NCBI GenBank assembly: GCA_046760225.1
Contig: JBHIDR010000020.1
Location: 1 to 14,168, forward strand
Length of the DNA: 14,168 nt
Source of the DNA: Candidatus Aenigmatarchaeota archaeon
GTDB lineage: Archaea; Aenigmatarchaeota; Aenigmatarchaeia; Aenigmatarchaeales; JACQIB01
Direction of reading: 5' to 3'
The first letter of the stretch is position 1, and the number at the start of each line of letters is the position of its first letter. A program made the position numbers and the translations under genes. The notes below the pieces were generated by a model. That model worked only from the letters and a program-made list of their open reading frames with translations. It had not been told where the DNA came from and searched no databases. Positions 53 through 14,168 of this stretch are shown in pieces.

Positions 53-53
53 G

Positions 54-470: not shown

Positions 471-745
471 TGAGGACAATTTTTCATAAGGGTATGACAA
501 GTGCCGGGCGCTTAAGAAAAACAAGAAAAGGCATGAAGATAGTTGTGCAAGGAACAAGGGGCGGCATGGATTTCATTGATGATGGTGTGCTAGACAGCAT
601 CTATCAGGCTGATGGAACAGAATACATGGACTATACAGCAATTGTTGGTGGAGAAAAATATAAGCGAAGAATAGATTTGAAAAATTACAAAGGAGAGCTT
701 GCCATATACAGTCCATCACCTCCTGTGGGCGTGTTGCGACGCTAG
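470..745 (+). CDS. hypothetical protein (91 aa) inserted in the ribosomal operon
   Basis: ATG overlaps the rpl30 stop (TGATG). The ORF fills the gap to the next gene. No family recognised. Confidence 0.7.
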   Translation: MRTIFHKGMTSAGRLRKTRKGMKIVVQGTRGGMDFIDDGVLDSIYQADGTEYMDYTAIVGGEKYKRRIDLKNYKGELAIYSPSPPVGVLRR

Positions 746-754
746 GTGAAAAAA

Positions 755-1231
755 ATGAAAAAAGCTGTAATCGTTATTGATGCGATAAAGGGAATGGAGA
801 AATGGGTTCCTGCCAGCAGGATGAAGAAGATACTTCCCAACATAAAGAAGGTTCTGGACAAGGCAAGAGCAAAGAAGATACCTCTTATTTACATTGTGCA
901 CACTCCGCTGGGCAAGAAAGGCACTATCATATACGATACTATCAAGCCGGCCAAAGGAGAGAGGAAGATATTCAAGAAAAAATACAGTAGCTTCTACAAC
1001 ACGAGCCTGGACAAGACGCTCAAAAAAATGAGAGTGAAAAGGCTCGTGCTTACAGGTGTAAGCACGCATTGGTGTGTGCTCGCAACAGCGCTTGATGCCC
1101 ATTACAGGGACTATAAAATAACAATCTTGAAGGACTGCGTTACAGCCCCGACCGAAAAAGACCACAGGCTTGCACTGGACTGGCTGGAAGGCACAATAGA
1201 CATGACTCTGGCAAGCTCCAAAAGATGGTGA
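755..1231 (+). CDS. isochorismatase/nicotinamidase-family cysteine hydrolase
   Basis: Catalytic-triad motifs AVIVID (Asp), FKKKYSSF (Lys) and LTGVSTHWCVLATALDA (Cys). SD GGTGA precedes ATG 755. Confidence 0.9.
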   Translation: MKKAVIVIDAIKGMEKWVPASRMKKILPNIKKVLDKARAKKIPLIYIVHTPLGKKGTIIYDTIKPAKGERKIFKKKYSSFYNTSLDKTLKKMRVKRLVLTGVSTHWCVLATALDAHYRDYKITILKDCVTAPTEKDHRLALDWLEGTIDMTLASSKRW

Positions 1232-1236
1232 AAAAT

Positions 1237-1653
1237 ATGGTGCAAAGGTTCAGGAAAAAAATAACAAGGCAGAGAGGAAGAAGATGGCATGGCTGGGGCA
1301 GCAAGAAGAAGCACCGTGGCGGTGGAAGCAGAGGCGGCAGGGGCAAGGCAGGCATGTTCAAGCACAAGAAGTCATGGGCACTGAAACACGGTTATGTCTT
1401 TGGGAAGAGGGGATTCAAGTTGCCTGAGGTTGTCAAGAGAGCAGTAAAATCAATAAACGTGCAAGACCTGGACGAGCTTTGCAGGAAGAGAGGGATAAAG
1501 GAGGTAGATGTGGGGAAGCTGGGATATGGAAAGGTTCTTGGTTCAGGAAAGATAACGCAAGCGATTACTGTCAGGGCAATGATTGTAACACCAAAGGCAA
1601 AGGAGAAAATAGAAGCAGCCGGAGGAAAAATAATTTTACCGGAGAGCGAATGA
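1237..1653 (+). CDS. rpl15: 50S ribosomal protein L15 (uL15)
   Basis: RGRRWHGWGSKKKHRGGGSRGGRGKAG...GYGKVLGSG...AKEKIEAAGG. SD GGTGA at 1227-1231; alternative start at 1225. Confidence 0.97.
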   Translation: MVQRFRKKITRQRGRRWHGWGSKKKHRGGGSRGGRGKAGMFKHKKSWALKHGYVFGKRGFKLPEVVKRAVKSINVQDLDELCRKRGIKEVDVGKLGYGKVLGSGKITQAITVRAMIVTPKAKEKIEAAGGKIILPESE

Positions 1654-1654
1654 C

Positions 1655-3166
1655 ATGGACATAAGCGATATTGCAGCAAGACTGCCGAGCATAGTGAAGT
1701 CAGAGCAAAAGCTGACCTTTAGAGACAAGTTAAAATGGACAGGAATCATACTCGTGCTCTTCTTTGTTCTGGGCTCTGTTACTGTTTGGGGGATTGATGC
1801 TGGTGCAGTTGCACAGTTCGAGTTCCTGGAGATAGTGTTCGGCTCCAAGTTCGGGTCACTAATTACCCTGGGAATAGGGCCAATAGTGACAGCATCCATT
1901 ATACTGCAGCTTCTTGTGGGAAGCAAGATACTGGACTGGGACACCAAGACAGAGGAAGGCAAAAAGAAATTCATGGGCACACAGAAGGTGCTCGCTGTTC
2001 TTTTCTGCGTGTTCGAGGCTGCTGCATATGTTTTTGCAGGTGCAGTGCCTCCTGCTGGCGGGGGCCTGGGCCTTGCCCTGATTGTCGTGGCACAGCTCAC
2101 CCTGGGCGGCATAATAATCATTCTCATGGACGACATGTGCCAGAAATGGGGAATCGGTTCAGGAGTGTCGCTGTTCATTGCAGCAGGGGTCTCAAAGACA
2201 ATATTCGTGAGGACATTCTCACCTCCCTTGGGAGAAGCAGGAGGGGGAATAATATCCTCGTTCCTTGCTTCGCTGACAGCAGGGCAACCGACAATGGCGA
2301 TAATATCACTTCTTCCACTTATAGCAACCCTCACGGTCTTCGTGATTGTGGTCTATATGCAGGGAATAAGAGTGGAGATTCCAATGGCATTCTCCCTTCC
2401 ATTCGGCAAGTTTGCAGCAAGAAGATGGCCGCTCAAGTTCTTCTACACCTCAAACATACCGGTGATTCTGACAGCTGCTGTTATTGCGAATGTCCAGGTC
2501 GTAGGAAAGATAATGTCACAGAAGGGGATAGGTATATTCGGGCAGTATGACGCCAACGGGCGGGTTGTCGGAGGGCTGGCATACTACCTCACTGCTCCGC
2601 AGTCTATAGGGCTCATGATAATGGTGGTGCTTGCAGGCCTTATTGCATTGGGATTCGCGCTGTTGGCAGTAAGTATATGGAAGAAATTCGCGCTCAGGAT
2701 GTCGATTCTTGGTGTAGCTGTGGGACTGCTGATAGGCCTTTTCATTGTTACGAACGTGGCTGAGATACCAGCTGTTGCACCAGGTGATTATGTAAGGGGG
2801 CTGACATACATGCTTGCAATGATAATAGGGTCCATAATATTCTCGATATTCTGGATGAGCACTGCCGGCATGGATGCAAAGAGCGTTGCTGAGCAGTTCA
2901 AGTCATCATTCTTAATGATTCCTGGTTTCAGAAGAGACCCCAGGATAATAGAGCATGTGCTGAACAGGTACATACCCTCTCTTGCCGTGCTGGGCGGGGC
3001 ATTTGTTGGTTTCCTTGCAGGGTTTGCTGACCTGACAAATGCTCTTGGAACAGGAACAGGAATACTGCTGGCTGTTATGATAGTCTATCAGTTTTACGAA
3101 ACAATTGCACAGCAGCACATGGAGGAAATGCACCCTGCTGTAAGAAAATTCATGGGAGGAAGTTAA
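1655..3166 (+). CDS. secY: preprotein translocase subunit SecY (Sec61alpha), with an extra hydrophobic insert
   Basis: KLKWTGIIL, GSLITLGIGPIVTASIILQLL, KWGIGSGVSLFIAAGV, PLKFFYTSNIPVIL, IPGFRRDPR, GTGTGILLAVMIVYQFYE. Confidence 0.98.
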   Translation: MDISDIAARLPSIVKSEQKLTFRDKLKWTGIILVLFFVLGSVTVWGIDAGAVAQFEFLEIVFGSKFGSLITLGIGPIVTASIILQLLVGSKILDWDTKTEEGKKKFMGTQKVLAVLFCVFEAAAYVFAGAVPPAGGGLGLALIVVAQLTLGGIIIILMDDMCQKWGIGSGVSLFIAAGVSKTIFVRTFSPPLGEAGGGIISSFLASLTAGQPTMAIISLLPLIATLTVFVIVVYMQGIRVEIPMAFSLPFGKFAARRWPLKFFYTSNIPVILTAAVIANVQVVGKIMSQKGIGIFGQYDANGRVVGGLAYYLTAPQSIGLMIMVVLAGLIALGFALLAVSIWKKFALRMSILGVAVGLLIGLFIVTNVAEIPAVAPGDYVRGLTYMLAMIIGSIIFSIFWMSTAGMDAKSVAEQFKSSFLMIPGFRRDPRIIEHVLNRYIPSLAVLGGAFVGFLAGFADLTNALGTGTGILLAVMIVYQFYETIAQQHMEEMHPAVRKFMGGS

Positions 3167-3168
3167 GT

Positions 3169-3849
3169 ATGAGGATAATAATGCTCGGGCCACCTGGTTC
3201 AGGAAAAGGCACATATTCGAAAAGAATGAGCCCAGAGCTGGGAATACCACATATATCAACAGGTGATATTTTCAGGGAGCACCTGAAGAAGGAGACGGAA
3301 ATAGGCAAGAAAATAAAAGAGGTTATGAGGTCAGGAGGTCTGGTTCCCGATGATATTGTCATGGAGATTGTGAAGGACAGGCTTTCAAAGGAGGATGCGC
3401 AGAAAGGGTTCATATTCGATGGATTTCCAAGAACACTCTTCCAGGCAAAGGAACTTGAGAAGACGGTGAAAGTGGATGTTGTGGTGAACCTCTATCTTCC
3501 GGACGATGTTCTGATAGAGAAGCTGAGTGCGAGGAGAATATGCAAGGAGTGCGGTGATATCTATAACATAGCTGACATAAACCGCGAAGGGATAAGGATG
3601 CCTGCAATGAACCCGAAGGTCCAAGGAAAATGTGACAAGTGTGGCGGTGAGCTGATTCAGAGAAAGGATGATACAGAAGAAGTGATAAGGGAAAGGCTCG
3701 AAGTATACAAAAAACAGACAGAACCGCTGATAAAGTTCTACAGGGATAAGGAGCTTATCCTTGATATAAAGGTCACAGACCCGCCAGGGATAATGGTACC
3801 GAGAATATTGGGAGAAATCAAGAAATTTAGAGGTGAGAAATATGGTTGA
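3169..3849 (+). CDS. adk: adenylate kinase (bacterial-type, Zn-binding LID)
   Basis: GPPGSGKGT P-loop, HISTGDIFR, GFIFDGFPRT, LID CKEC...CDKC, QRKDD. Confidence 0.96.
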   Translation: MRIIMLGPPGSGKGTYSKRMSPELGIPHISTGDIFREHLKKETEIGKKIKEVMRSGGLVPDDIVMEIVKDRLSKEDAQKGFIFDGFPRTLFQAKELEKTVKVDVVVNLYLPDDVLIEKLSARRICKECGDIYNIADINREGIRMPAMNPKVQGKCDKCGGELIQRKDDTEEVIRERLEVYKKQTEPLIKFYRDKELILDIKVTDPPGIMVPRILGEIKKFRGEKYG

Positions 3850-4324
3850 CTTTTATTTTGGAATATTGAACGCGCTGTTCGCGCCAGTACTGGTGTTGCC
3901 TCCGATACTAGCAGAGATGGTAATAGCTGCAGTAATAGCCTTCATAATAACAATCTTTTACAAGAAGATGGTCAATCAAAGTGAACTCAAGGAGCTGAAA
4001 GAGGAGCAGAGGAAGCTTCAGGAAAAGGTAAAGGAGCTCCAGAAAACAAACCCGGACGAGGCGAACAGGCTCACAAAGGAGATGCTCAAGCTCACGAACA
4101 AACAGATGAAGATGAACTTCAAGCCAATGCTGCCCACGCTGCTACTTGTAATAATACTGTTCCCATGGATAGCATCGGTCTTTATGAGCAGTGAGCATCT
4201 TCTGAGGGCCATGCTTCCCTTCACCCTTCCGTTCTTTGGTAATGACTTTGGATGGCTGATGTGGTACATAGTGGTTTCAATACCGTTTTCACAGATATTC
4301 AGGAAACTGCTGGGTGTTCAATAA
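3842..4324 (+). CDS. DUF106 / EMC3-TMCO1 (Oxa1 superfamily) membrane protein
   Basis: TM helix, coiled coil, MKMNFKPM, then TM helices with FGWLMWYIVVS...RKLLG. Conserved position between adk and rpl34e. SD AGGTGA precedes ATG 3842. Confidence 0.9.
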   Translation: MVDFYFGILNALFAPVLVLPPILAEMVIAAVIAFIITIFYKKMVNQSELKELKEEQRKLQEKVKELQKTNPDEANRLTKEMLKLTNKQMKMNFKPMLPTLLLVIILFPWIASVFMSSEHLLRAMLPFTLPFFGNDFGWLMWYIVVSIPFSQIFRKLLGVQ

Positions 4325-4581
4325 TGAGAAGAGCTCAAAGAACAAGAACAATGAAGAAGACAAGGGTCAGGACCCCTGGTGGAGAGACAGTTATCAGGAT
4401 AAAAAAGAGGAGGCCTGGCTACCATGAATGCGGAAGATGCGGTGCAAAGCTGAACAGGAGAAGGATGAGAGCAAAGGAGATAAGGAAACTGCCAAGAACA
4501 CAGAGAAGGCCTGAGAGGCCATTGCCTGAACTTTGTTCCAGATGCATGAGGGAGGCAATGAAAGCAAGGGTGAAAGGATGA
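4324..4581 (+). CDS. rpl34e: 50S ribosomal protein L34e
   Basis: RVRTPGG...CGRCGAKL...RRPERP...LCSRCMR. ATG overlaps the upstream TAA. Confidence 0.95.
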   Translation: MRRAQRTRTMKKTRVRTPGGETVIRIKKRRPGYHECGRCGAKLNRRRMRAKEIRKLPRTQRRPERPLPELCSRCMREAMKARVKG

Positions 4582-4757
4582 TTAAAATCGATGAAAAAGA
4601 GTATGAGCTTGCATGCAAGGCAATGAGGGAGATAGAGCTAGCTAACGACTCATGGGAGAACCTGAACTTTCCGGGTTATTTTTACCATTCAGGCAAGGCA
4701 ATGTACATCACATTGGTGGGGATCGCCTACGACATAAAGAAAGCGGTGAGAGGATGA
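4578..4757 (+). CDS. small hypothetical protein (59 aa) in the usual cmk position
   Basis: ATGA overlaps at both ends (rpl34e stop and rpl14e start) and an SD GGTGA upstream. Reads MIKIDEKEYELACKAMREIEL... Confidence 0.7.
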   Translation: MIKIDEKEYELACKAMREIELANDSWENLNFPGYFYHSGKAMYITLVGIAYDIKKAVRG

Positions 4758-5107
4758 TGGAAAGGGGCAGAGTGTGCATGAAGATTGCTGGCAGGGAAGC
4801 TGGCATGTACTGCGTAATAGTTGAAGAGCCTAAGGAAGGCTTTGTCATGATTACTGGACCGAAGAGCGTAACAAGGGTGAAGAGGAGGAAGTGCAACATC
4901 ATGCACATAGAAGTGACAGAGCACGTGCTGGACATAGGAAAGGGCGATGATGACTCTATTGAAAAGGCATGGAAATCATCCAATATGATAGAAAAGCTCA
5001 ATATTTCTTTGCCAAAAAAGAAGAAGGAAAGGAAGGAGAAAAGAGAAAAGCCCAAGAGAAAGCGGAGGAAAAAGGCCAGGCCCAAAAAAGTTGAGGCAAG
5101 AAAATAA
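4754..5107 (+). CDS. rpl14e: 50S ribosomal protein L14e with Lys/Arg-rich C-terminal tail
   Basis: GRVCMKIAGREAGMYCVIV...VMITGPKSVTRVKRRKCNIMHIE. SD GGTGA precedes ATG 4754/4757. Confidence 0.95.
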   Translation: MMERGRVCMKIAGREAGMYCVIVEEPKEGFVMITGPKSVTRVKRRKCNIMHIEVTEHVLDIGKGDDDSIEKAWKSSNMIEKLNISLPKKKKERKEKREKPKRKRRKKARPKKVEARK

Positions 5108-5133
5108 ATAGAATAACGCCCATTATTTCTCTA

Positions 5134-5421
5134 ATGACAAAGGCCAAACAACCTTCTCTGCGTGCTACACTATTCGGTATCTCAGATGAAAACACCACCC
5201 TTATGAAATATATCAGACTGGCTCAGCCGCTCAGTGAACCTGAGCATCTGAAGTTAATGTTGGGGGCAGCATCCAAATTCGATGGTTCTTTATCTGCTTT
5301 GAAAGGATGTGAACAGCGACTTGAAACAGAAGATAAAAAGGAAAAGATAGTTAGAGATTATAAGGCCTATATGCTGCATCCAGATATGGTTGGAGTATCA
5401 ATTAGGCACAATAAATGCTGA
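5134..5421 (+). CDS. hypothetical protein (possibly the N-terminal half of a frameshifted gene)
   Basis: 95-aa ORF that overlaps the next ORF in the +1 frame. No family recognised. Confidence 0.5.
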   Translation: MTKAKQPSLRATLFGISDENTTLMKYIRLAQPLSEPEHLKLMLGAASKFDGSLSALKGCEQRLETEDKKEKIVRDYKAYMLHPDMVGVSIRHNKC

Positions 5422-5815
5422 TTTACCAGAAAGGAAGGAATCTTCGCAAACAGTTTATCTTAACAGTTTCAACGCCTGGACAGACAATACAGAAAAAGTA
5501 ATAGACGAGCTTGCAATGAGATATTCTGCTAAAGGAGGGAACGTTTATCCCAGGCGCAATCTTACTTATGATGAAATCAGGGCATGTGCATTAGCATCTG
5601 GAATGAGTGAAGAGGAATTTTCTGGAGGCATGGATGTTGCCCCTGATACTGAATATATAGTAATGGGCGGTCTTGTAGAAAGGATAGTTGATGGTAAAAA
5701 GGTTATGGTCCAATCATATGATATCACTCCAGATGTTGCCAAATCATTGGACTGTCTTATGTGGCTATTAAAGATGGAGCCAAAACCTAAAGAAGTTTTA
5801 CCAAGACATTATTGA
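5390..5815 (+). CDS. hypothetical protein (possibly the C-terminal half of a frameshifted gene)
   Basis: 141-aa ORF with a TTG start and no obvious SD. Its frame is open from 5351. Confidence 0.5.
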   Translation: MEYQLGTINADLPERKESSQTVYLNSFNAWTDNTEKVIDELAMRYSAKGGNVYPRRNLTYDEIRACALASGMSEEEFSGGMDVAPDTEYIVMGGLVERIVDGKKVMVQSYDITPDVAKSLDCLMWLLKMEPKPKEVLPRHY

Positions 5816-5850
5816 CAAATGTTTCAATTTCTTTCATATAATTCTATGCA

Positions 5851-5977
5851 GCCTCCTTCGCTTTTTCCGCAGCTACCGCTCAGTTCCTTCTTAAGCCTCG
5901 CTGCCCTTCGGGCCGCTTCGCTAGCTCGGCTAAGAGGAACCTTCGCTAAAACGCTGCTCAAAAAAAGCTTCGGAGGT
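5851..5977 (+). repeat. long imperfect GC-rich inverted repeat / structured element with TTCG-type bulges
   Basis: Nested pairs: GCCTCC 5851-5856/GGAGGT 5972-5977, GCTTTTT 5860-5866/AAAAAGC 5962-5968, GCAGC 5869-5873/GCTGC 5953-5957, GTTCCT 5883-5888/AGGAAC 5935-5940, CTTA/TAAG, GCC/GGC, and an apical GCCC-TTCG-GGC. Confidence 0.8.
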
Positions 5978-5983
5978 GTTTAT

Positions 5984-7483
5984 ATGAAGCTCCCAGAAAA
6001 TTTATATCATACTAAACTCAATAGTAAATTTAGGAGAACCATGAATATAAAAAATAAGGTGTTTTACAGGGAGATAATTCATCCAAATATCTTGCAGGAA
6101 TTTTTGAAGCTAGAGAAGCCAATAATGGTCTTTGAGACAGAAATCAATAATGTCGATAAGAGTGCTTTCGCAACCTTTCTGGCCAAGCAGAGAAAGGAGG
6201 CAAAGATTGAAATAGGTAGCATTGTGCTTTTCAGGGCAAAGAAGAACAAAAAGACTTTTGAGTTCACTTCCAAATTGGGAAATTGGGGGAAATTCCATAT
6301 TCCAAAGGAACTTGTTGAAACATTGAGAATCAAAAACCATGAAAGAATTGTTTTTGAGACTATCGCAAAGAACTCCAAACCGATTCCGAGGGCGCAACCT
6401 ATAGATTTAGCCGATATTACAAGTATGGATAGCAGACTAAAAATTATATTACGCCCAAAAGGGTTTGTAACCATATGGAAAAAAGCGCATACACCTATAA
6501 CCGTGCCTAGATTCCTAGAACCTTCAGAGGATTTATTTGTTTTTGCTTACTTAATGCATGGAGATGGGCATTATAAAAGTAAATTTTTCTTCTCTAATGC
6601 TAGTTATAGATTGCATAGATTCGTTATGGAAAAGTTCGAAGAGATATTTACTCTCCCTAAAAATATGTGGAGGTGCAGGGTTTCCCATCATAAAGAGGAT
6701 CCAGCTGTTAAAATTTACTGGAAGAAGGCACTTGGTTTTAGCGAAGAGCAATTCTACCCAAAAATATCAAGGACACGCTTCGGAATGTTAAAGCGTGGTA
6801 ATGCAAGAACAACAATTGATTATAAACTCGTTGCTACTGTCTTCCGATTTGTCTTTGGCAAACTGAATGACATGATTGATGAAGGCAATGCTTTGCATGC
6901 GCTCGATGGCATACTAAATGCAGAGGGTAGTGCTGGCATATACAAGAATGGCCTTCACAAGTTAACTATATCCTTTAGTCAATCTGAGAAGGATATGTTT
7001 GCAAAAATATTGAGAAAGTGTGGATTTCTAGGGTTATGTAATTGTTTGAATGATAGGTTTGTAATGGGAGACTGGAATAATTTCTATCAGCTCATAAGGA
7101 AATTTCATGAGAACAGGCTTGTGCCCTTTAGTCAAAATCCTGTGAGAAGCGCAAATGTCGTTAATGGTCTCTTAAATCATAGATATACTAAAACTATTAC
7201 AAAATACTTGAAAGCTATAGATGATGATGGACGTACATTTGCCGAAATAGCCAAAGGATTGGGTCATAAAAGGGCGTCTGTTGCCAAGGAACTGAGAAAC
7301 AAGAGATTTGATGATTTTATTAAAATAGAAGGTAGAGGCATAAACAGAAGCCCTTTAAGAGTTTCTATCTCTAAAGAGGGTCTGGGATTTTTAGAAGTTA
7401 TTAAGTGGTTGGAGCAACAACGTCCAATCATAAATAAACTATTAATTGAAGATGAACAACTTGAAAGGAGGTGGATAAGCTGA
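5984..7483 (+). CDS. free-standing LAGLIDADG-like endonuclease with N-terminal AbrB-like and C-terminal winged-HTH domains (499 aa)
   Basis: SD GGAGGTG (5972-5978) precedes ATG 5984. AbrB-like FTSKLGNWGKFHIPKELVETLRIKNHERIVFE; LAGLIDADG-like motifs FAYLMHGDGH and ALDGILNAEGS; HTH-like RTFAEIAKGLGHKRASVAKEL followed by ISKEGLGFL. Confidence 0.72.
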   Translation: MKLPENLYHTKLNSKFRRTMNIKNKVFYREIIHPNILQEFLKLEKPIMVFETEINNVDKSAFATFLAKQRKEAKIEIGSIVLFRAKKNKKTFEFTSKLGNWGKFHIPKELVETLRIKNHERIVFETIAKNSKPIPRAQPIDLADITSMDSRLKIILRPKGFVTIWKKAHTPITVPRFLEPSEDLFVFAYLMHGDGHYKSKFFFSNASYRLHRFVMEKFEEIFTLPKNMWRCRVSHHKEDPAVKIYWKKALGFSEEQFYPKISRTRFGMLKRGNARTTIDYKLVATVFRFVFGKLNDMIDEGNALHALDGILNAEGSAGIYKNGLHKLTISFSQSEKDMFAKILRKCGFLGLCNCLNDRFVMGDWNNFYQLIRKFHENRLVPFSQNPVRSANVVNGLLNHRYTKTITKYLKAIDDDGRTFAEIAKGLGHKRASVAKELRNKRFDDFIKIEGRGINRSPLRVSISKEGLGFLEVIKWLEQQRPIINKLLIEDEQLERRWIS

Positions 7484-8456
7484 ATAAAAGGAAATGGTTG
7501 ATAAGATCTCATGAAGTTTCGCTGCCTGAATACGGAAAATATCCTGGGGCAAGGACAGACGAGGAGATGCTCAAGAACGGCATAATAATTCTTGACAAGC
7601 CACCAGGACCAACATCACATCAGGTGGATGTCTGGATAAAGGAGATTATTGACGTGCACAAATGCTCACATGGTGGGACCTTAGATTTTAGCAGGTTGAT
7701 ATAACACTGTTATATAAAGGAAATCCCCGTGTGAGTGGAGTTTTAATACTTGCTTTGGAAAACGCCACAAAGCTCATGCCTATTCTTCTTTCCAGCAGAA
7801 AGGAATATGTGGCCCTGATAAACCTCCACAGGGAGGTGGAAGAAGGCAAGATTAAGAAGGTGCTGCAGAAGTTCAGGGGAAAGATAAAGCAGCTTCCACC
7901 AAAAAAGGCTGCTGTTGCGCGGCGTGTGCGCGAAAGGGAGATTTATTATCTTGAGGTTCTTGAGATTGACAAAAGAAACATTCTTATAAAGGTTGGTTGT
8001 GAGGCAGGCACATACATAAGAAGGCTGGCTGATGATGTTGGTAAGGAGCTTGGTATTGGCGCACACCTGCAGGAGCTGAGAAGGACCAAGAGCGGCACAT
8101 TTACAGAGGAGCAAACAGTGAAAATGCAGGATGTTGTTGATGCTGTGGCTGAAGACAGGATAAGGGATATTGTGCTTCCAATGGAGAGTATAGTTGAAGA
8201 TATAAGGAGTGTTGTGATAAAAGACAGTGCTGTTGATGCAATATGCAACGGCGCTCCACTGAGTTCAGGCGGAATATCAAGACTGGAGGAAGGAATAGTG
8301 AGAGGTGAGTGGGTAGGCATCCTTACGCTCAAGGGAGAACTGGTTGCAATTGGCAAAGCTACCATGAACAGCAAGGACATGAAAAGAAAGAAGGGAATAG
8401 CAGTAAAAACAGACAGGGTGCTTATGAAGAAGGGAACCTATCCTAAGATGTGGTAA
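7471..8456 (+). CDS. cbf5: H/ACA RNA-guided pseudouridine synthase Cbf5, spliced: join(7471..7684,7723..8456), 315 aa
   Basis: Exon 1 has GIIILDKPPGPTSHQV...HGGTLD. Exon 2 has PRVSGVL...KEYV...QLPP...GTYIR...QELRRTKSG and a PUA domain (VIKDSAVDAICNGAPL). Removing 38 nt gives 948 nt in frame. The start could be GTG 7471 or CTG 7480. Confidence 0.95.
7685..7722 (+). other. 38-nt BHB mRNA intron within the catalytic Asp codon (G|AT) of cbf5
   Basis: Exon helix GGGA 7675-7678/TCCC 7724-7727; central helix CCTT 7679-7682/AAGG 7717-7720; bulges AG|A 7683-7685 and AA|A 7721-7723. Internal hairpin ATATAAC-ACT-GTTATAT at 7699-7715. In-frame TAA at 7702-7704 if unspliced. Confidence 0.93.
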
Positions 8457-8976
8457 GTTTCTCTATTATCTTGTCTGCTACTTGTTCTGCTGTAAGGTTT
8501 GATGTGTCAATAACCATGTCTGCTTCTTTTTCAAGGTCAGAAGGTGTAAAACCATAAATCCTTTTGAAATTCTTTCTTTCTAGTTCCTCTTTTTCCTTTA
8601 GTTGTCTGAGCGCTGTTTCATAGTCTATTCCTTCTTCTCTTTGCGTTATTCTCTTTGCTCTTACTTCTATTGCTGCCTTTAGCCATACCTTTAGGTCAGC
8701 TTTCTTTACAAACCTGATTGAGAGCTTTCCATCTATCACTATGTTGCCCTTGTCTGCAAGCTCTTGCTGTTTCCTGTCTATTTCCTCATGGAATGACTTG
8801 CTTGAGCCCTTTTCTGTTCTCCAGACATCCACTGCTGCTTTTGTCTCCTTTCCTGCTCCATGGGACTTGAAGAATTTTCCAGGTGAGAAATAACCGATGC
8901 CCAATTTTTCAGAAACAAGCCTTGACACTGTGCTTGTGCCGCATCCTGGCTGGCCGGATATCACTATAACTGGCAT
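8443..8976 (-). CDS. cmk: cytidylate kinase (archaeal type)
   Basis: IVISGQPGCGTSTVS P-loop, IDRKQ, NIVIDGKLS, ADLKVWLKA...RAKRI..RE, RIYG, DMVIDTSNL. Confidence 0.92.
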   Translation of the reverse strand: MPVIVISGQPGCGTSTVSRLVSEKLGIGYFSPGKFFKSHGAGKETKAAVDVWRTEKGSSKSFHEEIDRKQQELADKGNIVIDGKLSIRFVKKADLKVWLKAAIEVRAKRITQREEGIDYETALRQLKEKEELERKNFKRIYGFTPSDLEKEADMVIDTSNLTAEQVADKIIEKLTTS

Positions 8977-9009
8977 AGTTATAAATAACTATTTACAAAT
9001 AAAACCATT
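8977..9009. promoter_or_regulatory. 33-bp AT-rich divergent promoter region for cmk and trm112 (probably leaderless)
   Basis: TTATAAAT at 8979-8986 lies 31 nt before ATG 9010. The reverse strand is also AT-rich, upstream of the cmk ATG at 8976. Confidence 0.55.
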
Positions 9010-9174
9010 ATGCCAGTAAGCGAAGAACTGCAAAAAGTAATGGCCTGCCCAAAGTGCAAGGGCGAGCTGGAGTTCGGGAAAAATGATATAAAGTGCCCTG
9101 CATGCAGGCTGAAGTTCAAGATTCTAGAAGGCGACATACCAGACATGCTCCTCGAGGACGCTGAGAAGTATTAA
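9010..9174 (+). CDS. trm112: Trm112-family methyltransferase activator (54 aa; not in the ORF track)
   Basis: MPVSEELQKVMACPKCKGELEFGKNDIKCPACRLKFKILEGDIPDMLLEDAEKY*, matching the Trm112 ACPxCKGxL...CxxC...IPxML signature. Confidence 0.9.
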   Translation: MPVSEELQKVMACPKCKGELEFGKNDIKCPACRLKFKILEGDIPDMLLEDAEKY

Positions 9175-9176
9175 GC

Positions 9177-9184
9177 TTTAAATA
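9177..9184 (+). promoter_or_regulatory. TATA box for tRNA-Ser
   Basis: TTTAAATA begins 32 nt upstream of tRNA G1. Confidence 0.65.
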
Positions 9185-9222
9185 TTCTAGGACTTTACTA
9201 ATCATTAAGCCGGTGTAGCGAA

Positions 9223-9253
9223 TGGCTTTGTATTTCGTTACAAGACCCGCGAA
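9223..9253 (+). other. tRNA-Ser intron 1, position 14/15 (31 nt, relaxed BHB)
   Basis: Flanked by a GCGAA direct repeat. Central helix (A)GCG 9217-9220/CGC(G) 9248-9251 pairs 3 of 4; bulges AA|T and AA|G; intron stem GG/CC plus TTTGTA/TACAAG. This was the only one of the six possible registers giving a near-BHB. Confidence 0.8.
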
Positions 9254-9272
9254 GCCAGGTTCAACGCGCCAG

Positions 9273-9310
9273 TTTTCAAGTTTTGAGGCCAATGGCCTGT
9301 GAAAGGCGAC
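9273..9310 (+). other. tRNA-Ser intron 2, position 30/31 (38 nt)
   Basis: Central helix CGCC 9267-9270/GGCG 9305-9308; bulges AG|T and AC|A; intron helix TTTCA/TGAAA; internal hairpin AGGCC-AAT-GGCCT. Confidence 0.9.
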
Positions 9311-9317
9311 ACTTGAG

Positions 9318-9390
9318 AACCTTAGGTTAAATGAATGAATGGCTTGACTCTGAAATGCGGCGGAGGATGTAGAGTCCTTTAAGTCATGAT
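9318..9390 (+). other. tRNA-Ser intron 3, canonical position 37/38 (73 nt)
   Basis: Central helix CTTG 9312-9315/CATG 9385-9388 with one U-U mismatch; bulges AG|A and AT|A; intron stem CTTAGG/TTTAAG. Confidence 0.88.
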
Positions 9391-9422
9391 ATCTGGTGTC
9401 CTTCGGGACGCGCAGGTTCGAA

Positions 9423-9457
9423 GCACTGCCCTCGGTGCACGAGGGTGGAAGCGAAAC
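9423..9457 (+). other. tRNA-Ser intron 4, position 59/60 (35 nt)
   Basis: Exon helix GCAGG/CCTGC; central helix TTCG 9417-9420/CGAA 9452-9455; bulges AA|G and AC|T; internal hairpin CTGCCCTCG/CGAGGGTGG. Confidence 0.93.
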
Positions 9458-9474
9458 TCCTGCCGCCGGCGCCA

Positions 9475-9490
9475 TTCCTTCTTTTAATTT
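9475..9490 (+). terminator. T-rich putative archaeal terminator after tRNA-Ser
   Basis: TTCCTTCTTTTAATTT directly follows the CCA. Confidence 0.5.
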
Positions 9491-9553
9491 ATACAGCAAT
9501 TGTTCTCTCCAGGAATCTATCAATTTAAATGTTTTTGGGTCGCTATATCACAC

Positions 9554-10879
9554 ATGGGGTCCAAAGTGTCTCATCCAGATATATCAGAGTATTACAAAGA
9601 CATTCTTGAGATGGCTGATGCCTACAGGATGAGGAACCTCATAAACCCAACCAAACAGGCACAAAAGATACGAGAGAAAGCAGTGAGGAAAAAGCATGGA
9701 AAGATAGAGTTCCGCTCTACTAATTTTGCAGGAACACTGCAGGAAATAGATATTAAGAAAAGGACAGAGATGCCTCTTGATGCAATTACAAATACACACC
9801 CTTACAGATTCAAAATAGACACAAAGGAATTTGATCCCAAGGAGCGCGTGAAAAAGGCAAGGGATGAGTCCCTGCCCAAGCATGTGCGAGGAGAATATAG
9901 TGAACCATTTGACTTCAATGACATAAAGGGGATATTCAAGTCCCTTGGGCTCAAGTACAACTTTGACATGCCACTGATAAGTCTGCGCAGAACAGATCGC
10001 CCCCTGAAGGACATAAGGCACTTTGACATGGCTCTGATAACGCAGCTTCAAGGCTGTAATCTTCATGACTTTGGGCCTGGTGGCGGATGCATATTCTGCT
10101 ATGTGGATGCTGAGAGCAACTGTCCGTATACACCAAACAGGGGAGTATGGCTAGGGGTTGAGAATATACTTACCACAGTGAAAGAACTAAGGGATGATCC
10201 CACGATAAGAGCGGGCCTTGAGTTGCATAGGGTAAGGCTGAGCGGCGGAGAACCCACAGTGATGCTGGACTTTGCACTGGAGCTTGCTGAAACAATAGAG
10301 AAGGAAAAGATTGACCAGCTACATGTTTGGTTTGATACAAACCTGAGCGCAAAGACATTCATCGACAACATGATAAAGGAGAACAAATATCCAAAGGACA
10401 TACTTCAGCAGCTTGCATCGCATGATGTGTGCGTCTATGCTGCATTCAAAGGTACAACAGACAAGAACATAATACACAACGCCCAGGCAGAGCTCTCAAC
10501 TAATGAGCAGATGGAAGCGCTTGGGCAACTTGTGGATGCAAGGCTTGAGGCATATCCTTGTATATACAATCCTGATTACAAATCATTCCCAGATTTCATT
10601 GACAAGCTCAATGAGAACTTCACAAATGCCTCAAAGATTCTTAGAATAGAGGGTATTAATTGGACATATGAGCCCACGAAGCTAAGAATCAGGAAAATTG
10701 CAGAGGCCATAAATGTGCCAGAGGAATATCTGTACAATGCATATGTGCAGGAGGAGGCCCTAAATTATAACAAGTGCGAGGAGTTCATGCTGCACTACGT
10801 AGGTGATAAGTACGGCCTGCCGTACAAGGAGTTTGACAGGACACAGTTCAAGGTAGAGAGAAGGATTGTAGAGGCCTAA
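9554..10879 (+). CDS. radical SAM protein with an atypical CX10CX2C motif (441 aa)
   Basis: QGCNLHDFGPGGGCIFCYVD, VRLSGGEPTV, FDTN. TATA-like TTTAAATG at 9524-9531 supports a start at ATG 9554. Confidence 0.85.
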   Translation: MGSKVSHPDISEYYKDILEMADAYRMRNLINPTKQAQKIREKAVRKKHGKIEFRSTNFAGTLQEIDIKKRTEMPLDAITNTHPYRFKIDTKEFDPKERVKKARDESLPKHVRGEYSEPFDFNDIKGIFKSLGLKYNFDMPLISLRRTDRPLKDIRHFDMALITQLQGCNLHDFGPGGGCIFCYVDAESNCPYTPNRGVWLGVENILTTVKELRDDPTIRAGLELHRVRLSGGEPTVMLDFALELAETIEKEKIDQLHVWFDTNLSAKTFIDNMIKENKYPKDILQQLASHDVCVYAAFKGTTDKNIIHNAQAELSTNEQMEALGQLVDARLEAYPCIYNPDYKSFPDFIDKLNENFTNASKILRIEGINWTYEPTKLRIRKIAEAINVPEEYLYNAYVQEEALNYNKCEEFMLHYVGDKYGLPYKEFDRTQFKVERRIVEA

Positions 10880-10880
10880 T

Positions 10881-11315
10881 TTAATAAATAGGAAGTCTTT
10901 TGAGCTCTTCCATCATTTTTTCCCATTGTTCCTTTTCTTCTGGTGGTCCTTTGTAGTCAACTTGTGTGATGTAGGGCTCTTCAGACAGCTCATCTCCAGG
11001 GCATACCTCAACCACACATATGTCCCTTCCTGCTCCATCCTGTACCATAAAATATGAGTGTGGCATCTCTATGTAATCGATATCATTTTCATCATAGGTC
11101 TCTTCACCGGTTTCCTCATTATATCTCGGTTCCCAATCAAAAACATGTGATGTCTTGGTGTCTTCTGGTGGTACATATTCTATGTACTTGCATCCATATT
11201 TCAGACAAAAACCTTTCAGACCTAGGAATGGCTCCATAACTACAGTATCTACTATCTCCTCTATGGACCTGTTGTCCTCAAGCTCTACAGGGAATTTGTC
11301 CTTCTCCTTTTCCAT
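10881..11315 (-). CDS. acidic hypothetical protein (144 aa)
   Basis: Starts MEKEKDKFPVELEDN and is Glu/Asp-rich. TATA-like TTTAAAGA on the minus strand at 11335-11342. The longer ORF-track version runs into the rps13 promoter and leader. Confidence 0.7.
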   Translation of the reverse strand: MEKEKDKFPVELEDNRSIEEIVDTVVMEPFLGLKGFCLKYGCKYIEYVPPEDTKTSHVFDWEPRYNEETGEETYDENDIDYIEMPHSYFMVQDGAGRDICVVEVCPGDELSEEPYITQVDYKGPPEEKEQWEKMMEELKRLPIY

Positions 11316-11366
11316 AGATTCTAATACAATCTTATCTTTAAACAATTTTCTGGTAATTGAAGAAGC

Positions 11367-11374
11367 TTTATAAA
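11367..11374 (+). promoter_or_regulatory. BRE/TATA promoter of the rps13-rps4-rps11-rpoD operon
   Basis: Purine-rich GAAGAAGC followed by TTTATAAA. Confidence 0.6.
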
Positions 11375-11446
11375 GGTTCATTTGCAATAGGAAATATACT
11401 TTCCAGCGCAGTGCTGGTTGCCGTGGAGGGCACAAAAAGTGATACA

Positions 11447-11959
11447 ATGGTCAAGGAAAAGAAAAAGTTCGAAAAAAAACCAGAGGTCAAGAAAGTAGAG
11501 GAAGGAGTGCGGGGAATTGTAAGGTTTGCTGAAGCTGACCTTGACGGTACTAAAAAGATACGGGTTTCTCTGCTCAAAGTCAAGGGAATAGGACAATCAC
11601 TTGCTATTTCTCTTCCCAGGGCAGCCGGGATTGACCCTGAAGCAATAACAGGAAAGCTCACAGACGAGCAGGTCAAGAGGATGGAGGAGATTCTGAAAAG
11701 CCTTACCAGAGCAGGCATACCGGGATTCATGCTTAACAGGAGAACAGACCCTGAAACAGGTGAGGACAGGCACATAACAAGCTCAGACCTCACGCTGAGA
11801 AGGAAGTTCGACATAGACTTCCTCAGGAAGATAAGATGCTACAAGGGCATAAGGCATGAGCAGGGCCTTCCAGTAAGGGGGCAGAGGACAAGGGGAAGCT
11901 TCAGAACAGGCGTAAGAGTAGGTGTCCAGAAAAAGGCACTGAAGAGAAAGAAGGAATGA
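11447..11959 (+). CDS. rps13: 30S ribosomal protein S13 (uS13)
   Basis: IVRFAEADLDGTK...VKGIG...LNRRTDPETGEDRH...YKGIRHEQGLPVRGQRTR. Confidence 0.97.
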   Translation: MVKEKKKFEKKPEVKKVEEGVRGIVRFAEADLDGTKKIRVSLLKVKGIGQSLAISLPRAAGIDPEAITGKLTDEQVKRMEEILKSLTRAGIPGFMLNRRTDPETGEDRHITSSDLTLRRKFDIDFLRKIRCYKGIRHEQGLPVRGQRTRGSFRTGVRVGVQKKALKRKKE

Positions 11960-11963
11960 TTCC

Positions 11964-12440
11964 ATGAAGAGGCAGAGAAAGAAATACTCGAGGCCGAAGA
12001 GGCCATGGGACAAGGACAGAATAAAGGGGGAGAAGAAGCTGCTCCAGGAATTCGGTTTACGGAGGAAAAAGGAGATATGGAGAGCAGAGGCCATACTAAG
12101 GGACTTCAGAAGAAGGGCAAGGGAGCTTGCAGCGCATGAGAACAAGGAGCAGGAGGCGCTCCTGCTCAACGGCCTTTTCAGGCTGGGGCTAATAAAAAAG
12201 GATGCCAGCCTTGATGATGTGCTGGGCCTTACAGTTGAAAGGCTGCTTGAAAGAAGGCTGCAGACACTAGTACTCAAAAAGGGTCTTGCCAACACACAAA
12301 AACAGGCAAGGCAATACATTGTACACGGCCATATTGCTGTCAAGGGGAGGAGGACAAGATGGCCGAGCATCTTGGTCACAACAGAAGAAGAGGCAACAGT
12401 GAAATTTTACAGCAAGAGCCCGATAGGTGTTAAGAAATGA
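11964..12440 (+). CDS. rps4: 30S ribosomal protein S4 (uS4)
   Basis: [16 protein letters not shown]...[11 protein letters not shown]...LERRLQT...[11 protein letters not shown]. Confidence 0.97.
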
Positions 12441-12835
12441 AGCCGAAAAGGGAAATAAAATGGGGAATAGCTCATATATTCAGTTCATCAAATAATACAA
12501 TAGTTCATGTTACAGATCTGACAGGTGCTGAGACAATTTCAAGGATAAGCGCTGGCATGATGACTGACAAGGACAGGGAAGGGGGAAACCCCTATCCTGC
12601 AATGATGGCTGCAACCAAGGTTGCAGAAGAATCTCTTGCAAAGGGGATAACAGGCGTGCACATAAAGGTAAGGGCTCCTGGAGGAATAAAGAAAAAGAGC
12701 CCTGGTGCAGGAGCCCAGCCAGCAATAAGGGCGCTTGCAAGGGCAGGCATGAGGATAGGAAGGATAGAGGACGTGACACCAGTCCCACATGACAGTTGTC
12801 GAAAAAAAGGGGGCCGACGTGGCCGCCGAGTTTGA
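12437..12835 (+). CDS. rps11: 30S ribosomal protein S11 (uS11)
   Basis: [25 protein letters not shown]...[14 protein letters not shown]...[10 protein letters not shown]...GGRRGRRV. Confidence 0.98.
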
Positions 12836-12844
12836 GGTGAATAG

Positions 12845-13630
12845 ATGAAGGTAAAAATGCTTTCGAAAACCGATAGGGAAATAAAATTTATTGTTGAAGG
12901 CGTGAATGCACAGTTTGTCAATGCCCTCAGAAGGATAGCAATGGCTGAGACACCGGTCCTTGCCATTGATACAGTAGACTTCTACTACAATGACTCTGTT
13001 CTTTATGACGAGATTATTGCACACAGGCTCGGATCCCTGCCGCTTGAGTTCGATATAAAGGCACTTGACCTGAGAGCTGACTGTGACTGCGAAGGAAAGG
13101 GCTGTGCCAACTGCCAGATAGTGCTGGTGATTGACAAGAAAGGCCCGGGAATGGTGTATGCAAAGGACATAAAGTCAGCAGACCCTGAGGTTGCAAAACC
13201 ACTCTATCCTGAGACGCCCATAGTTGAGTTGTTTGAGGGGCAGAAGCTGAAGGCAGAATCAACTGCCATACTTGGCTTCGGGAAGGACCATGCCAAATGG
13301 AGTGCTGCAAGGGCATGGTACAGGAACTACCCGAAAATAACACTGACAGGGAACATAAAGAACCCTGAGGAGGCTGTCAAGGCATGCCCCAAGAACGCAC
13401 TGTCAATAACAGGCAACAAGGTCACAGTAACAGAAGCATGCGACTTATGTGGTGAGTGCGCAAAAGTAGCCCGTCCAATAGGTGTTCTGAAGGTTGGTGG
13501 TGAGCCTGAGAAGTTCATATTCGACATTGAGTCGATCTCAGGGCTTTCAGCTGACAAGATAGTGCTTGCTGCATTGAGCATCCTCAAGAAAAAGGCAAAG
13601 GAATTCGAGAAGCAGACCGGTAAGCTTTAG
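12845..13630 (+). CDS. rpoD: DNA-directed RNA polymerase subunit D (Rpo3) with ferredoxin-like Fe-S insert
   Basis: FVNALRRIAMAETPVLAID...NDSVLYDEIIAHRLGSLPL...GKDHAKW; CP...CDLCGEC insert. SD GAGGTGA upstream. Confidence 0.97.
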   Translation: MKVKMLSKTDREIKFIVEGVNAQFVNALRRIAMAETPVLAIDTVDFYYNDSVLYDEIIAHRLGSLPLEFDIKALDLRADCDCEGKGCANCQIVLVIDKKGPGMVYAKDIKSADPEVAKPLYPETPIVELFEGQKLKAESTAILGFGKDHAKWSAARAWYRNYPKITLTGNIKNPEEAVKACPKNALSITGNKVTVTEACDLCGECAKVARPIGVLKVGGEPEKFIFDIESISGLSADKIVLAALSILKKKAKEFEKQTGKL

Positions 13631-13968
13631 TCGTGGTTGTCCAATTTCACGACCTTGCCTTCCTCTTTCAGCCTTTCCCTCATTTTCCTTTTCCTCTCTT
13701 CATCAGTTATCAGCCTGCTCAGATAGCTTCTGAAATCCTCTACTTCGCCGTGCTCCCCATGGACTGACATGTCCCTGACCTCAGCTTCTGTGTACCTTCC
13801 GTTCCTGACATCAGCCCCGGTCTCGCCCAGGTATATGGGCGTCCTGCCATCGTCGTGGATTCTTGTTGCGATTTTGTCTGCCCTGCTTTTCTCTACAATA
13901 AAGAACCCCCTTTCTCCCTCTTTGGGTTCAGGGCTGTCTGAATCAAGGCTGTACATGACCACTTTCAT
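13627..13968 (-). CDS. hypothetical protein (113 aa)
   Basis: Starts MKVVMYSLDSDSPEPKEGER. GGTG SD-like element and TTTAAATG on the minus strand (13991-13998) upstream. The longer ORF-track version overlaps tRNA-Leu. Confidence 0.65.
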   Translation of the reverse strand: MKVVMYSLDSDSPEPKEGERGFFIVEKSRADKIATRIHDDGRTPIYLGETGADVRNGRYTEAEVRDMSVHGEHGEVEDFRSYLSRLITDEERKRKMRERLKEEGKVVKLDNHD

Positions 13969-13999
13969 ACACCAGAGTAGCGTGCAAAGGCATTTAAAG

Positions 14000-14007
14000 T
14001 TTATAAA
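14000..14007 (+). promoter_or_regulatory. TATA box for the tRNA-Leu transcript
   Basis: TTTATAAA lies 30 nt upstream of G14030. Confidence 0.6.
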
Positions 14008-14048
14008 CTTCTCAACCAAATCTTTTAATGCGGGGAGTTTGCGGGGGT

Positions 14049-14062
14049 ATATAATGCCCCAA
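14049..14062 (+). other. tRNA-Leu intron at 8/9 (14 nt)
   Basis: Exon helix TTTGC 14038-14042/GCAAA 14064-14068; central helix GGGG 14043-14046/CCCC 14057-14060; bulges GT|A and AA|A. Confidence 0.82.
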
Positions 14063-14093
14063 AGCAAAGCCTGGAAACTGCGCAGGGCTTAAG

Positions 14094-14133
14094 CTCACGT
14101 AGCTTAAGAATTGAGCTTATGCTGTGATAAGAA
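14094..14133 (+). other. tRNA-Leu intron at 37/38 (40 nt)
   Basis: Perfect BHB: CAGGG/CCCTG, CTTA 14088-14091/TAAG 14128-14131, bulges AG|C and AA|A, intron helix TCAC/GTGA. Confidence 0.93.
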
Positions 14134-14168
14134 ACCCTGTCCCTTAGTGGGTCCGAGAGTTCAAAGGA

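Follow-up and report, generated by a model that had tools for sequence, protein, structure and literature searches.

A tRNA-Ser(UGA) gene with four predicted introns, a 7-nt micro-exon and a guide-like 37/38 intron in an Aenigmatarchaeota genome

The DNA considered here is a stretch of 14,168 nt from a Candidatus Aenigmatarchaeota archaeon (assembly GCA_046760225.1, contig JBHIDR010000020.1, positions 1 to 14,168), referred to below as the window. At 9209-9474 on the forward strand the window carries a tRNA-Ser(UGA) gene of five exons (14, 19, 7, 32, and 17 nt) separated by four introns (31, 38, 73, and 35 nt), the introns making up 177 of the 266 nt. As judged from its sequence, this is very probably a functional, single-copy gene whose four introns are removed by the tRNA splicing endonuclease EndA, the intron at 37/38 being old and guide-like and the three others later. 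Below, G numbers designate genomes, L numbers loci, C numbers contigs of the window's own genome, and X numbers sequencing runs. The parts of the gene are as follows.

9209-9222, + strand: exon 1, tRNA positions 1-14 (5' acceptor strand, U8, 5' D-stem strand, A14)
9223-9253, + strand: intron 1, 31 nt, at 14/15
9254-9272, + strand: exon 2, positions 15-30 (D loop, 3' D-stem strand, 26, 27-30)
9273-9310, + strand: intron 2, 38 nt, at 30/31
9311-9317, + strand: exon 3, the 7-nt micro-exon, positions 31-37, with the anticodon UGA
9318-9390, + strand: intron 3, 73 nt, at the canonical site 37/38, with a box C/D-like RNA inside
9391-9422, + strand: exon 4, positions 38-59 (3' anticodon-stem strand, long variable arm, 5' T-stem strand, T loop to A59)
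9423-9457, + strand: intron 4, 35 nt, at 59/60
9458-9474, + strand: exon 5, positions 60-76 (3' T-stem strand, 3' acceptor strand, G73, CCA at 9472-9474)

An earlier note on this DNA, made from its letters alone, had proposed a tRNA-Ser(UGA) with four introns at these sites and a 7-nt micro-exon. Its coordinates and lengths are exact, and the proposal is borne out by ARAGORN on the spliced product, by orthologues, and by an alignment with free gaps. Joined in script, the exons give an 89-mer that ARAGORN calls as tRNA-Ser(tga); the cloverleaf is complete, its variable arm is long, and CCA is encoded. None of the five exons is damaged, and the stems of the spliced cloverleaf (acceptor 7 bp with one G-U, D 3 bp, anticodon 5 bp, variable arm 4 bp, and T 5 bp) contain no mismatch. 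The traits of a class II tRNA-Ser are all present, namely the long variable arm, the 3-bp D stem, G73 (the G at 9471), and the anticodon UGA. In unspliced DNA ARAGORN is silent at the locus, whether run on the window or, with introns allowed, on 9150-9530 and on the genome. Rfam at gathering score gave no match on the window, its tRNA model RF00005 run genome-wide gave none at the locus, and a scan of 9150-9530 at E up to 10 returned a noise match alone (HLE, E 5.4). The expectation that standard finders would miss the gene was thus correct for ARAGORN, with and without its intron option, and for the Rfam tRNA model. An intact tRNA-Ser(UGA) elsewhere in the genome, which the earlier note had named, in combination with missing spliced junctions, as speaking against its proposal, was found neither among the 21 ARAGORN calls nor among the 18 RF00005 matches in the assembly (83% complete), and a blastn-short search of the assembly recovered this locus and a Ser(CGA) gene only.

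The exon junctions were placed by comparison with relatives. The orthologue in G001, a genome of the same genus, reads through positions 1-37 and again from 38 to CCA and carries the 37/38 intron only. The G012 orthologue is alike, with exons 1-3 contiguous and exons 4-5 contiguous, and in G011 the first 40 nt are a contiguous, gapless match to window exons 1, 2, and 3 joined. Junctions 1, 2, and 4 are therefore fixed by contiguous orthologues, with no use of the splicing motif. Junction 3 is the canonical site, and an intron lies there in every orthologue examined. Of the 89 positions of the spliced product, 83 are identical in G011, 80 in G020, 76 in both G001 and G006, and 73 in G012. The boundaries of introns 2 and 4 are unique, and intron 3 can slide by 1 nt. 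Those of intron 1 may be shifted upstream, by as much as 5 nt, and leave the product the same (six equivalent registers), because GCGAA ends both exon 1 and intron 1.

Since four free gaps will make many sequences look like a tRNA, the chance of such a carve-out was gauged with a template independent of the earlier note's model. The template was the mature tRNA-Ser(tga) of G001, a gene called by ARAGORN alone with a single 76-nt intron; ARAGORN alone likewise calls tRNA-Ser(tga) in G012, with one 82-nt intron. Aligned with free long gaps to window positions 9000-9700, the G001 template scored 90 and opened four long gaps, against 19.1 +/- 6.7 (maximum 36) for the same template on 150 random 701-nt pieces of the genome. 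Contigs from two runs, X1 (22.9 kb) and X3 (2.2 kb), cover 9050-9650 with 0 differences. X1 is possibly the source of this DNA and X3 is another sample of the same study; since their contigs are identical across the stretch, the structure is no assembly artefact. Genome-wide, tRNA matches are few (21 by ARAGORN, 18 by RF00005), and several of the ARAGORN calls show unusual introns or anticodons, such as 'Ser act', 'Asp atc', and 'Pro agg'. It is probable that many of the tRNA genes here have multiple introns and are misread or missed.

Three further features flank the gene.

9010-9174, + strand: upstream neighbour, a 54-residue Trm112p-like zinc-ribbon open reading frame (ORF) (Pfam PF03966, 25.7 bits against a cut-off of 22)
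9177-9184, + strand: TATA-like box TTTAAATA, ~25-32 nt upstream of tRNA position 1, a probable archaeal promoter
9475-9488, + strand: T-rich tract directly after CCA, a probable terminator

The same setting recurs in relatives. In G001 a box, TTTAAATATTC, stands at the same distance upstream of the gene as the TATA-like box does in the window, and in G001, G020, G011, and other, more distant Aenigmatarchaeota loci the gene is likewise preceded by the ORF end ...IPDMLLEDAE.... Across several families, at least seven Aenigmatarchaeota loci (G001, G020, G011, L054, L060, L102, and L134) have a Trm112p-like ORF immediately ahead of tRNA-Ser(UGA). Trm112 activates methyltransferases that act on tRNA and rRNA. 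A minus-strand ORF at 9116-9523 (135 residues), which covers the gene, has no Pfam match and was taken as spurious.

Archaeal tRNA introns are cut at the motif known as bulge-helix-bulge (BHB), and the earlier note's claim of a BHB or relaxed BHB at each intron holds in full for introns 2 and 4; at introns 1 and 3 a relaxed form alone can be drawn. Intron 4 has a strict hBHBh' motif, with a central helix TTCG/CGAA paired at 4/4 positions and the 5-bp T stem as outer helix. Intron 2 combines a 4/4 central helix (CGCC/GGCG), two 3-nt bulges, and a 5-bp intron helix with 1 exon pair only. Among random boundaries (20,000 per intron length), 0.47-0.60% fall into the class of introns 2 and 4, that is 4/4 pairs with a flanking helix. 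Intron 3 has 3/4 central pairs (one U-U) and a 2-bp intron helix; the anticodon stem, split by intron 2, can act as its outer helix only after that intron has been removed. A BHB-like motif is present at intron 1 in the 14/15 register only; its intron helix measures 2 bp by the scorer, with six more pairs visible by eye past one mismatch.

Orthologues in the order carry from one to four introns, the counts being approximate except for the window, G001, G012, and G020. By free-gap alignment the 37/38 intron stands alone at L002, L003, L014, L016, L018, L103, and L129, and two introns are present at L005 (= L036), L010, and L012 (= L112); by eye there are also two at L060, L075, and L141, the alignment splitting L060 and L141 differently. 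Three introns are found by alignment at L007 and by eye at L008, L009, L054 (= L095), L102, and L134, and four in the window, G020 (L004), and G006 (L013). When 24 spliced orthologue sequences were given to ARAGORN, 22 were called tRNA-Ser (21 tga and one aga after a mis-splice), and the spliced sequences of L054 and L134 were not recognized. The G020 gene, with exons set by hand, yields Ser(tga) of 90 nt. Several relatives have the same 7-nt exon flanked by 30/31 and 37/38 introns.

The four introns appear to differ in age. That at 37/38 would be old, being present in every orthologue and conserved in sequence, and introns 1, 2, and 4 would be later arrivals, introns 1 and 4 being missing from the same-genus relative. 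Intron 1 is absent from the G001, G012, and G011 orthologues, in which the D arm is contiguous. Homologous introns at 30/31 occur in G020, G031, G015, G039, G007, and G022 and are absent in G001, G012, and G011. Those of G020, G031, and G015 have in common with intron 2 the word TCAAGTTTTGA and an end reading (G/A)GCGA(C/T); G039 has the word only, with the end AGCGTT. The word (window 9276-9286) is thus kept in 30/31 introns that are otherwise divergent. Within its region CUCAAG/UCAAGU is complementary to the anticodon loop (exon 3), with the fifth letter from UUGA opposite U34, and the word is paired to exon 3 in minimum free energy (MFE) folds. Perhaps it keeps the micro-exon in place, or perhaps it is guide-like.

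Intron 4 is absent in G001 and G012 and belongs to a family within its own genome. Copies 87-93% identical to it occupy the same T-loop site on C1, C3, C37, and C32, in hosts that by eye are other tRNA genes with acceptor stems, T arms, and an encoded CCA. Among the copies, position 57 and its partner in the intron covary (G-C, G-U, A-U). The family has been copied into T loops across several tRNA genes, and intron 4 seemingly still varies in the population. A 47-nt contig of run X2 joins 9393-9422 directly to the 17-nt exon 5 and ends at CCA. Its depth is 12.2 against 21.6 for the main contig. At 47 nt it does not qualify as bridging, and it is consistent with a co-occurring strain whose allele lacks intron 4. 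Two homing-endonuclease-like ORFs lie within or next to tRNA genes. One, a LAGLIDADG_3 ORF of 222 residues, fills the 693-nt canonical intron of an ARAGORN-called tRNA-Tyr(GUA), LAGLIDADG_3 loci being at C3:24967-25736 and C3:44824-45768; the other, of 314 residues with helix-turn-helix and LAGLIDADG domains, ends on C3 just upstream of the 3' part of a tRNA bearing an intron-4-family copy. It is unusual for tRNA introns to house homing-endonuclease ORFs. The intron 4 family matches the pattern of intron transposition described for Thermoproteales (PMC4033280; bioRxiv preprint of October 2026 on Asgard archaea, 10.64898/2026.10.13.758758).

Several observations weigh against a functional gene with four EndA-spliced introns. 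No RNA run is listed among those containing the stretch, the four that contain it being DNA from one hydrothermal-vent study, and the bin (851 kb, 83 contigs), at 83% complete, leaves room for an uninterrupted second tRNA-Ser(UGA) copy. The motif of intron 1 is a relaxed HBh': 3/4 of the central pairs are present, the 5' bulge measures 3 nt, and the 3' cut lacks an exon helix. The relaxed class of introns 1 and 3 (3/4 pairs) is reached by ~14% of random boundaries, and with placement slack at about two-thirds of boundaries (10.64898/2026.10.13.758758). In MFE folds of the full precursor and of four single-intron forms, all four central helices are missing. Positions 25-28 are taken up by the central helix of intron 2 and 27-31 by the outer helix of intron 3, making the two motifs mutually exclusive. 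Finally, the alpha-like of two EndA paralogues has Ala at the place of the catalytic Lys156 of M. jannaschii (...AHNIRAN... vs ...AHSVRKK...). Because relaxed motifs are cheap (10.64898/2026.10.13.758758), motif support is credited to introns 2 and 4 only, and the predicted introns 1 and 3 are supported by comparative evidence instead. As 4-bp helices between bulges are disfavoured by nearest-neighbour energies, the MFE result was weighed neither against the introns nor as support for them.

Part of this evidence could be turned toward a dead tRNA gene riddled with insertions, the working tRNA-Ser(UGA) lying in the unassembled 17% of the genome. Such a reading draws on the incomplete bin, on the two of four insertions with relaxed motifs only, on the want of an RNA run among those containing the stretch, and on the short X2 contig without intron 4, which points to an uninterrupted form of at least one junction in the community. 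It sits poorly with five intact exons and a cloverleaf free of stem mismatches, with the preserved promoter-like box and neighbourhood, and with a BHB or relaxed BHB being possible at all four insertions, two of them in the ~0.5% class. Relatives moreover carry two to four introns in the same gene, and no second copy was found in the assembly. A dead gene is improbable on this evidence. Alternatively, the gene may be real and not all four insertions be removed by EndA, intron 1 being handled differently or cut elsewhere than at 14/15. A working tRNA needs the 31-nt insert in its D loop removed, and we know of no other archaeal pathway for removing tRNA introns, which was counted against this alternative. 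The 3/4 central pairs, the missing exon helix at the 3' cut, and the six equivalent registers of intron 1 speak for it, as does the report that D-arm insertions often lack a canonical motif (10.64898/2026.10.13.758758). In the 14/15 register, a 3-nt 5' bulge falls between a 3-bp helix and the extended intron helix, and the HBh' form is reportedly cut by EndAs of broad specificity (PMC4033280; PMC5829648), leaving little probability to a separate fate for intron 1. A chance carve-out or assembly artefact, for which it can be said that four free gaps make many sequences tRNA-like, is refuted by the identical X1 and X3 contigs and by a score with the independent template ~10 standard deviations above the null, the orthologues that lack exactly these inserts arguing in the same direction.

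The favoured reading, a functional gene spliced by EndA at all four sites, requires an enzyme able to cut relaxed motifs, and the genome encodes two EndA paralogues (PF01974+PF02778) on C2 with a nitroreductase-family ORF between them; in most relatives both EndA matches are likewise close together on one contig. The alpha-like protein (202 residues, C2:23747-24355, L022:2254-2862) has the Nanoarchaeum alpha subunit (3IEY_A, E 6e-35) as its closest match. The catalytic Tyr and His are retained, and relative to M. jannaschii a 7-residue Lys/Arg-rich insert stands right before the His, a basic insert that it shares with the Nanoarchaeum subunit. At the Lys156 site, 26 of 30 aligned alpha orthologues (L143-L172) have Ala and 4 have Ser. 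The phylum, full of introns, apparently uses an EndA without the canonical lysine. The beta-like protein (163 residues, C2:22790-23281), in which the His and Lys are missing, resembles a structural beta subunit. Broad specificity is compatible with an (alpha-beta)2-like enzyme (PMC5829648). The earlier note's suggestion of a broad-specificity EndA finds partial support in the alpha-like and beta-like paralogues and the basic insert. The ligase RtcB is encoded on C35. Its frame (C35:1477-2834) is interrupted twice near the start, by a 30-nt in-frame insert after ...GHEGY and, ahead of DINCGVRL, by a second of ~38 nt that brings in stop codons and shifts the frame. Both inserts look like BHB introns in the mRNA of the very ligase that would seal such introns.

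In the proposed course of maturation, the ~266-nt precursor would be transcribed in an Aenigmatarchaeota (DPANN) archaeon of a hydrothermal-vent community, EndA would cut the four BHB introns at 14/15, 30/31, 37/38, and 59/60, and RtcB would join the five exons. Were both introns flanking exon 3 cut before either junction was sealed, that exon would be released as a free heptamer. From this 7-nt exon and the mutually exclusive motifs of introns 2 and 3 we infer that splicing is ordered and proceeds in rounds of cutting and sealing, one intron being cut and sealed before the next motif folds. The same logic of ordered splicing has been given for genes with two and three introns (tRNAscan-SE 2.0 paper, PMC8450103).

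Intron 3 stands apart from the other three in its conservation and in its content. Within it the following box C/D-like elements can be laid out.

9331-9337, + strand: C-box-like AUGAAUG, first four letters (AUGA) invariant
9338-9349, + strand: 12-nt D' guide, core invariant in 18/18 aligned orthologues
9350-9353, + strand: D' box CUGA, the letter before GA covarying with its partner in C'
9367-9373, + strand: C'-box-like AUGUAGA, closing with D' a hairpin GACUC/GAGUC
9374-9385, + strand: 12-nt D guide, TTAAGT kept in the six closest intron types
9386-9389, + strand: D-box-like AUGA, overlapping the 3' strand of the BHB central helix

Over query positions 103-230, which take in exon 3, intron 3, exon 4, and the beginning of intron 4, identity is 85% to G001 and 78% to G012; over positions 98-214 it is 80% to G020. 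Across an alignment of 18 orthologues ATGA, followed 4-5 letters later by A(T/C)GGCTTGACTC-GA, is invariant or nearly so, as are GGCGG-like, ATG, and GA-T words further downstream. The sole consensus helix is ACTCN/N'GAGT, of 5 pairs, one of them covarying (UA 10, UG 3, CG 3, AU 1, UC 1). The spacing of the elements, C, 12 nt, D', 13 nt, C', 12 nt, D, is exactly that of archaeal box C/D small RNAs (sRNAs), and fibrillarin, Nop5, and L7Ae are all encoded.

The two guides point to different RNAs. Positions 9339-9348 of the D' guide (ATGGCTTGAC) are an exact 10-nt complement of GTCAAGCCAT in the organism's own 16S rRNA (C1:41048), at the start of helix 44, in the context CCGCCTGTCAAGCCATCTGAG. 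A search of the genome for targets of the D' guide gave one exact site, on the antisense strand of the intron itself, and 13 with one mismatch, rRNA being hit only at C1:41043. The same 16S word is present in five other Aenigmatarchaeota 16S loci. By the fifth-letter rule the target would be the first A of GUCAAGCC, which we take to correspond to E. coli A1408. Between the 3' part of the D guide and host tRNA positions 30-37, 8 pairs (2 G-U) are possible, and the fifth letter from the box then faces U34. No complementarity to a target at host tRNA position 39 was found in the 73-nt intron. The 16S gene itself appears fragmented on the minus strand of C1, spanning ~6.3 kb from ~46861 to 40500. 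Pieces matching RF01959 on the whole genome lie at 46861-45927, 45240-45168, and 43448-42935, and short conserved words place the start of helix 44 at 41048 and the 3' end at ~40512. A gathering-score Rfam scan of C1:39300-42800 gave no rRNA. The gene must hold several large insertions.

The core of intron 3 recurs outside tRNA genes, in insertions near the 3' end of 16S rRNA genes at L059, L069, L074, L087, and L094 (positions 451-465), loci titled Aenigmatarchaeota or 'uncultured archaeon'. RF01959 matches all five loci, with the motif inside the match in three and at or just past its end in two, and in all five the motif stands upstream of the terminal GGATCACCTCC. Four of them (L059, L069, L074, and L094) have a clean C' box, ATGATGA, and a second guide (GGAGGTGA) complementary to the 16S 3' end (UCACCUCC); L087 diverges from these after the D' box. 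The guide module has apparently travelled between introns of tRNA and introns of rRNA. Of 41 genomes in the order, 17 have the motif, as a single copy, against 0 matches for a reversed control. In a 15-mer scan of genome contigs, 12 of the 80 loci listed are titled Aenigmatarchaeota or 'uncultured archaeon', and the others listed are chance-like and mostly bacterial.

The case for a guide RNA meets some resistance. The C, C', and D boxes are degenerate (AUGAAUG, AUGUAGA, and AUGA), the D box overlaps the BHB helix, and Rfam gave no sRNA match to the intron 3 region (9150-9530, E up to 10). Pairing between the D guide and the anticodon loop may moreover be just part of the splicing structure of the intron. 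On balance it is fairly probable, with real reservations, that intron 3 is a working guide RNA, and less likely that U34 is among its targets. Were it to function in this way, the 37/38 intron would double as a box C/D RNA, one guide directing methylation to the base of 16S helix 44 and the other to the tRNA's own anticodon loop opposite U34.

A more encompassing reading joins these parts, and we put it forward only tentatively, as doubtful in its entirety. A four-intron tRNA with a 7-nt exon would be matured by ordered rounds; its 37/38 intron would direct methylation of the decoding-site A of 16S rRNA (presumably A1408) and of its own U34, as a module that has moved between BHB introns of tRNA-Ser and 16S rRNA across lineages; and introns of the 59/60 type would be spreading today, with presence and absence within one vent community, under an EndA whose catalytic lysine has been replaced.

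Multiple BHB introns in archaeal tRNA genes are already known as a kind, and the gene is not categorically new. The earlier note had given three introns per gene as the usual upper limit, which agrees with the 'maximum of three introns' of PMC4033280 and the 'up to three' of PMC8450103, both peer-reviewed, and has been overtaken by the 'up to five in a single gene' given for Asgard archaea in the bioRxiv preprint (10.64898/2026.10.13.758758). Literature searches found no report of tRNA introns in Aenigmatarchaeota. The closest parallels come from Thermoproteales (Pyrobaculum, Thermofilum, and Caldivirga; Sugahara et al., 2008, as cited in PMC4033280 and PMC8450103), with BHB or relaxed introns at sites including the D arm, 30/31, and 59/60, and also with a two-subunit EndA, related introns recurring across tRNA genes, and iterative splicing (PMC4033280; PMC8450103). 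Those genes have no more than three introns, as opposed to four here (PMC4033280; PMC8450103), and their hosts are crenarchaeal, whereas the present host is a DPANN archaeon with a genome of ~1 Mb and an alpha-like EndA lacking the canonical catalytic Lys. Asgard tRNA genes likewise have many introns, are missed by finders, and show repeated lineage-specific gains, their introns lying at canonical BHB boundaries above chance as here; they belong to another superphylum, and intron families shared between tRNA types amount to 1.5% there, in contrast to intron 4 copies in at least four other tRNA genes here (10.64898/2026.10.13.758758).

Among DPANN archaea, ARMAN-1/2 (Ca. Micrarchaeum) also have multiple non-canonical introns (PMC3239211; PMC3488258; PMC4033280), and the extra loop of their epsilon2 EndA, thought to widen specificity, is comparable to the EndA insert described above (PMC4033280). 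Their EndA is a three-unit fusion, unlike the two separate paralogues here, and they have fewer introns per gene. For intron 3 the nearest counterpart is sR50, the euryarchaeal pre-tRNA-Trp intron that guides Cm34 and Um39 (PMC7994747). It too is a 37/38 intron with C, D', C', and D boxes and pairing to the anticodon arm, and its BHB and box C/D folds compete, as they would in intron 3 (PMC7994747). The intron described here differs from sR50 in its host, tRNA-Ser(UGA), in having one guide directed to 16S helix 44, in its degenerate boxes, and in the presence of its core in insertions of sister 16S genes.

The interest of the gene lies in the number of its introns, its micro-exon, a possibly spreading intron family, and a guide-like intron. 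Together with the orthologues of G020 and G006, which also have four introns, it indicates that DPANN archaea with genomes of ~1 Mb exceed the three introns per tRNA gene of the peer-reviewed sources. Incomplete tRNA sets in DPANN archaea have been taken as a hint of unidentified disrupted genes (Kaneta et al., 2018, PMC5829648). Since ordinary finders miss such genes (21 ARAGORN and 18 Rfam matches in a genome 83% complete), the 'missing tRNAs' of such bins would be an annotation gap and not biology. With a 266-nt precursor, a 7-nt exon, and mutually exclusive motifs, the gene is a compact test case for splicing order, and near-identical intron copies with likely presence/absence polymorphism make it one for the spread of BHB introns. 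The conserved 37/38 intron, finally, offers a concrete target for an intron-hosted guide RNA that may act at the ribosomal decoding site.

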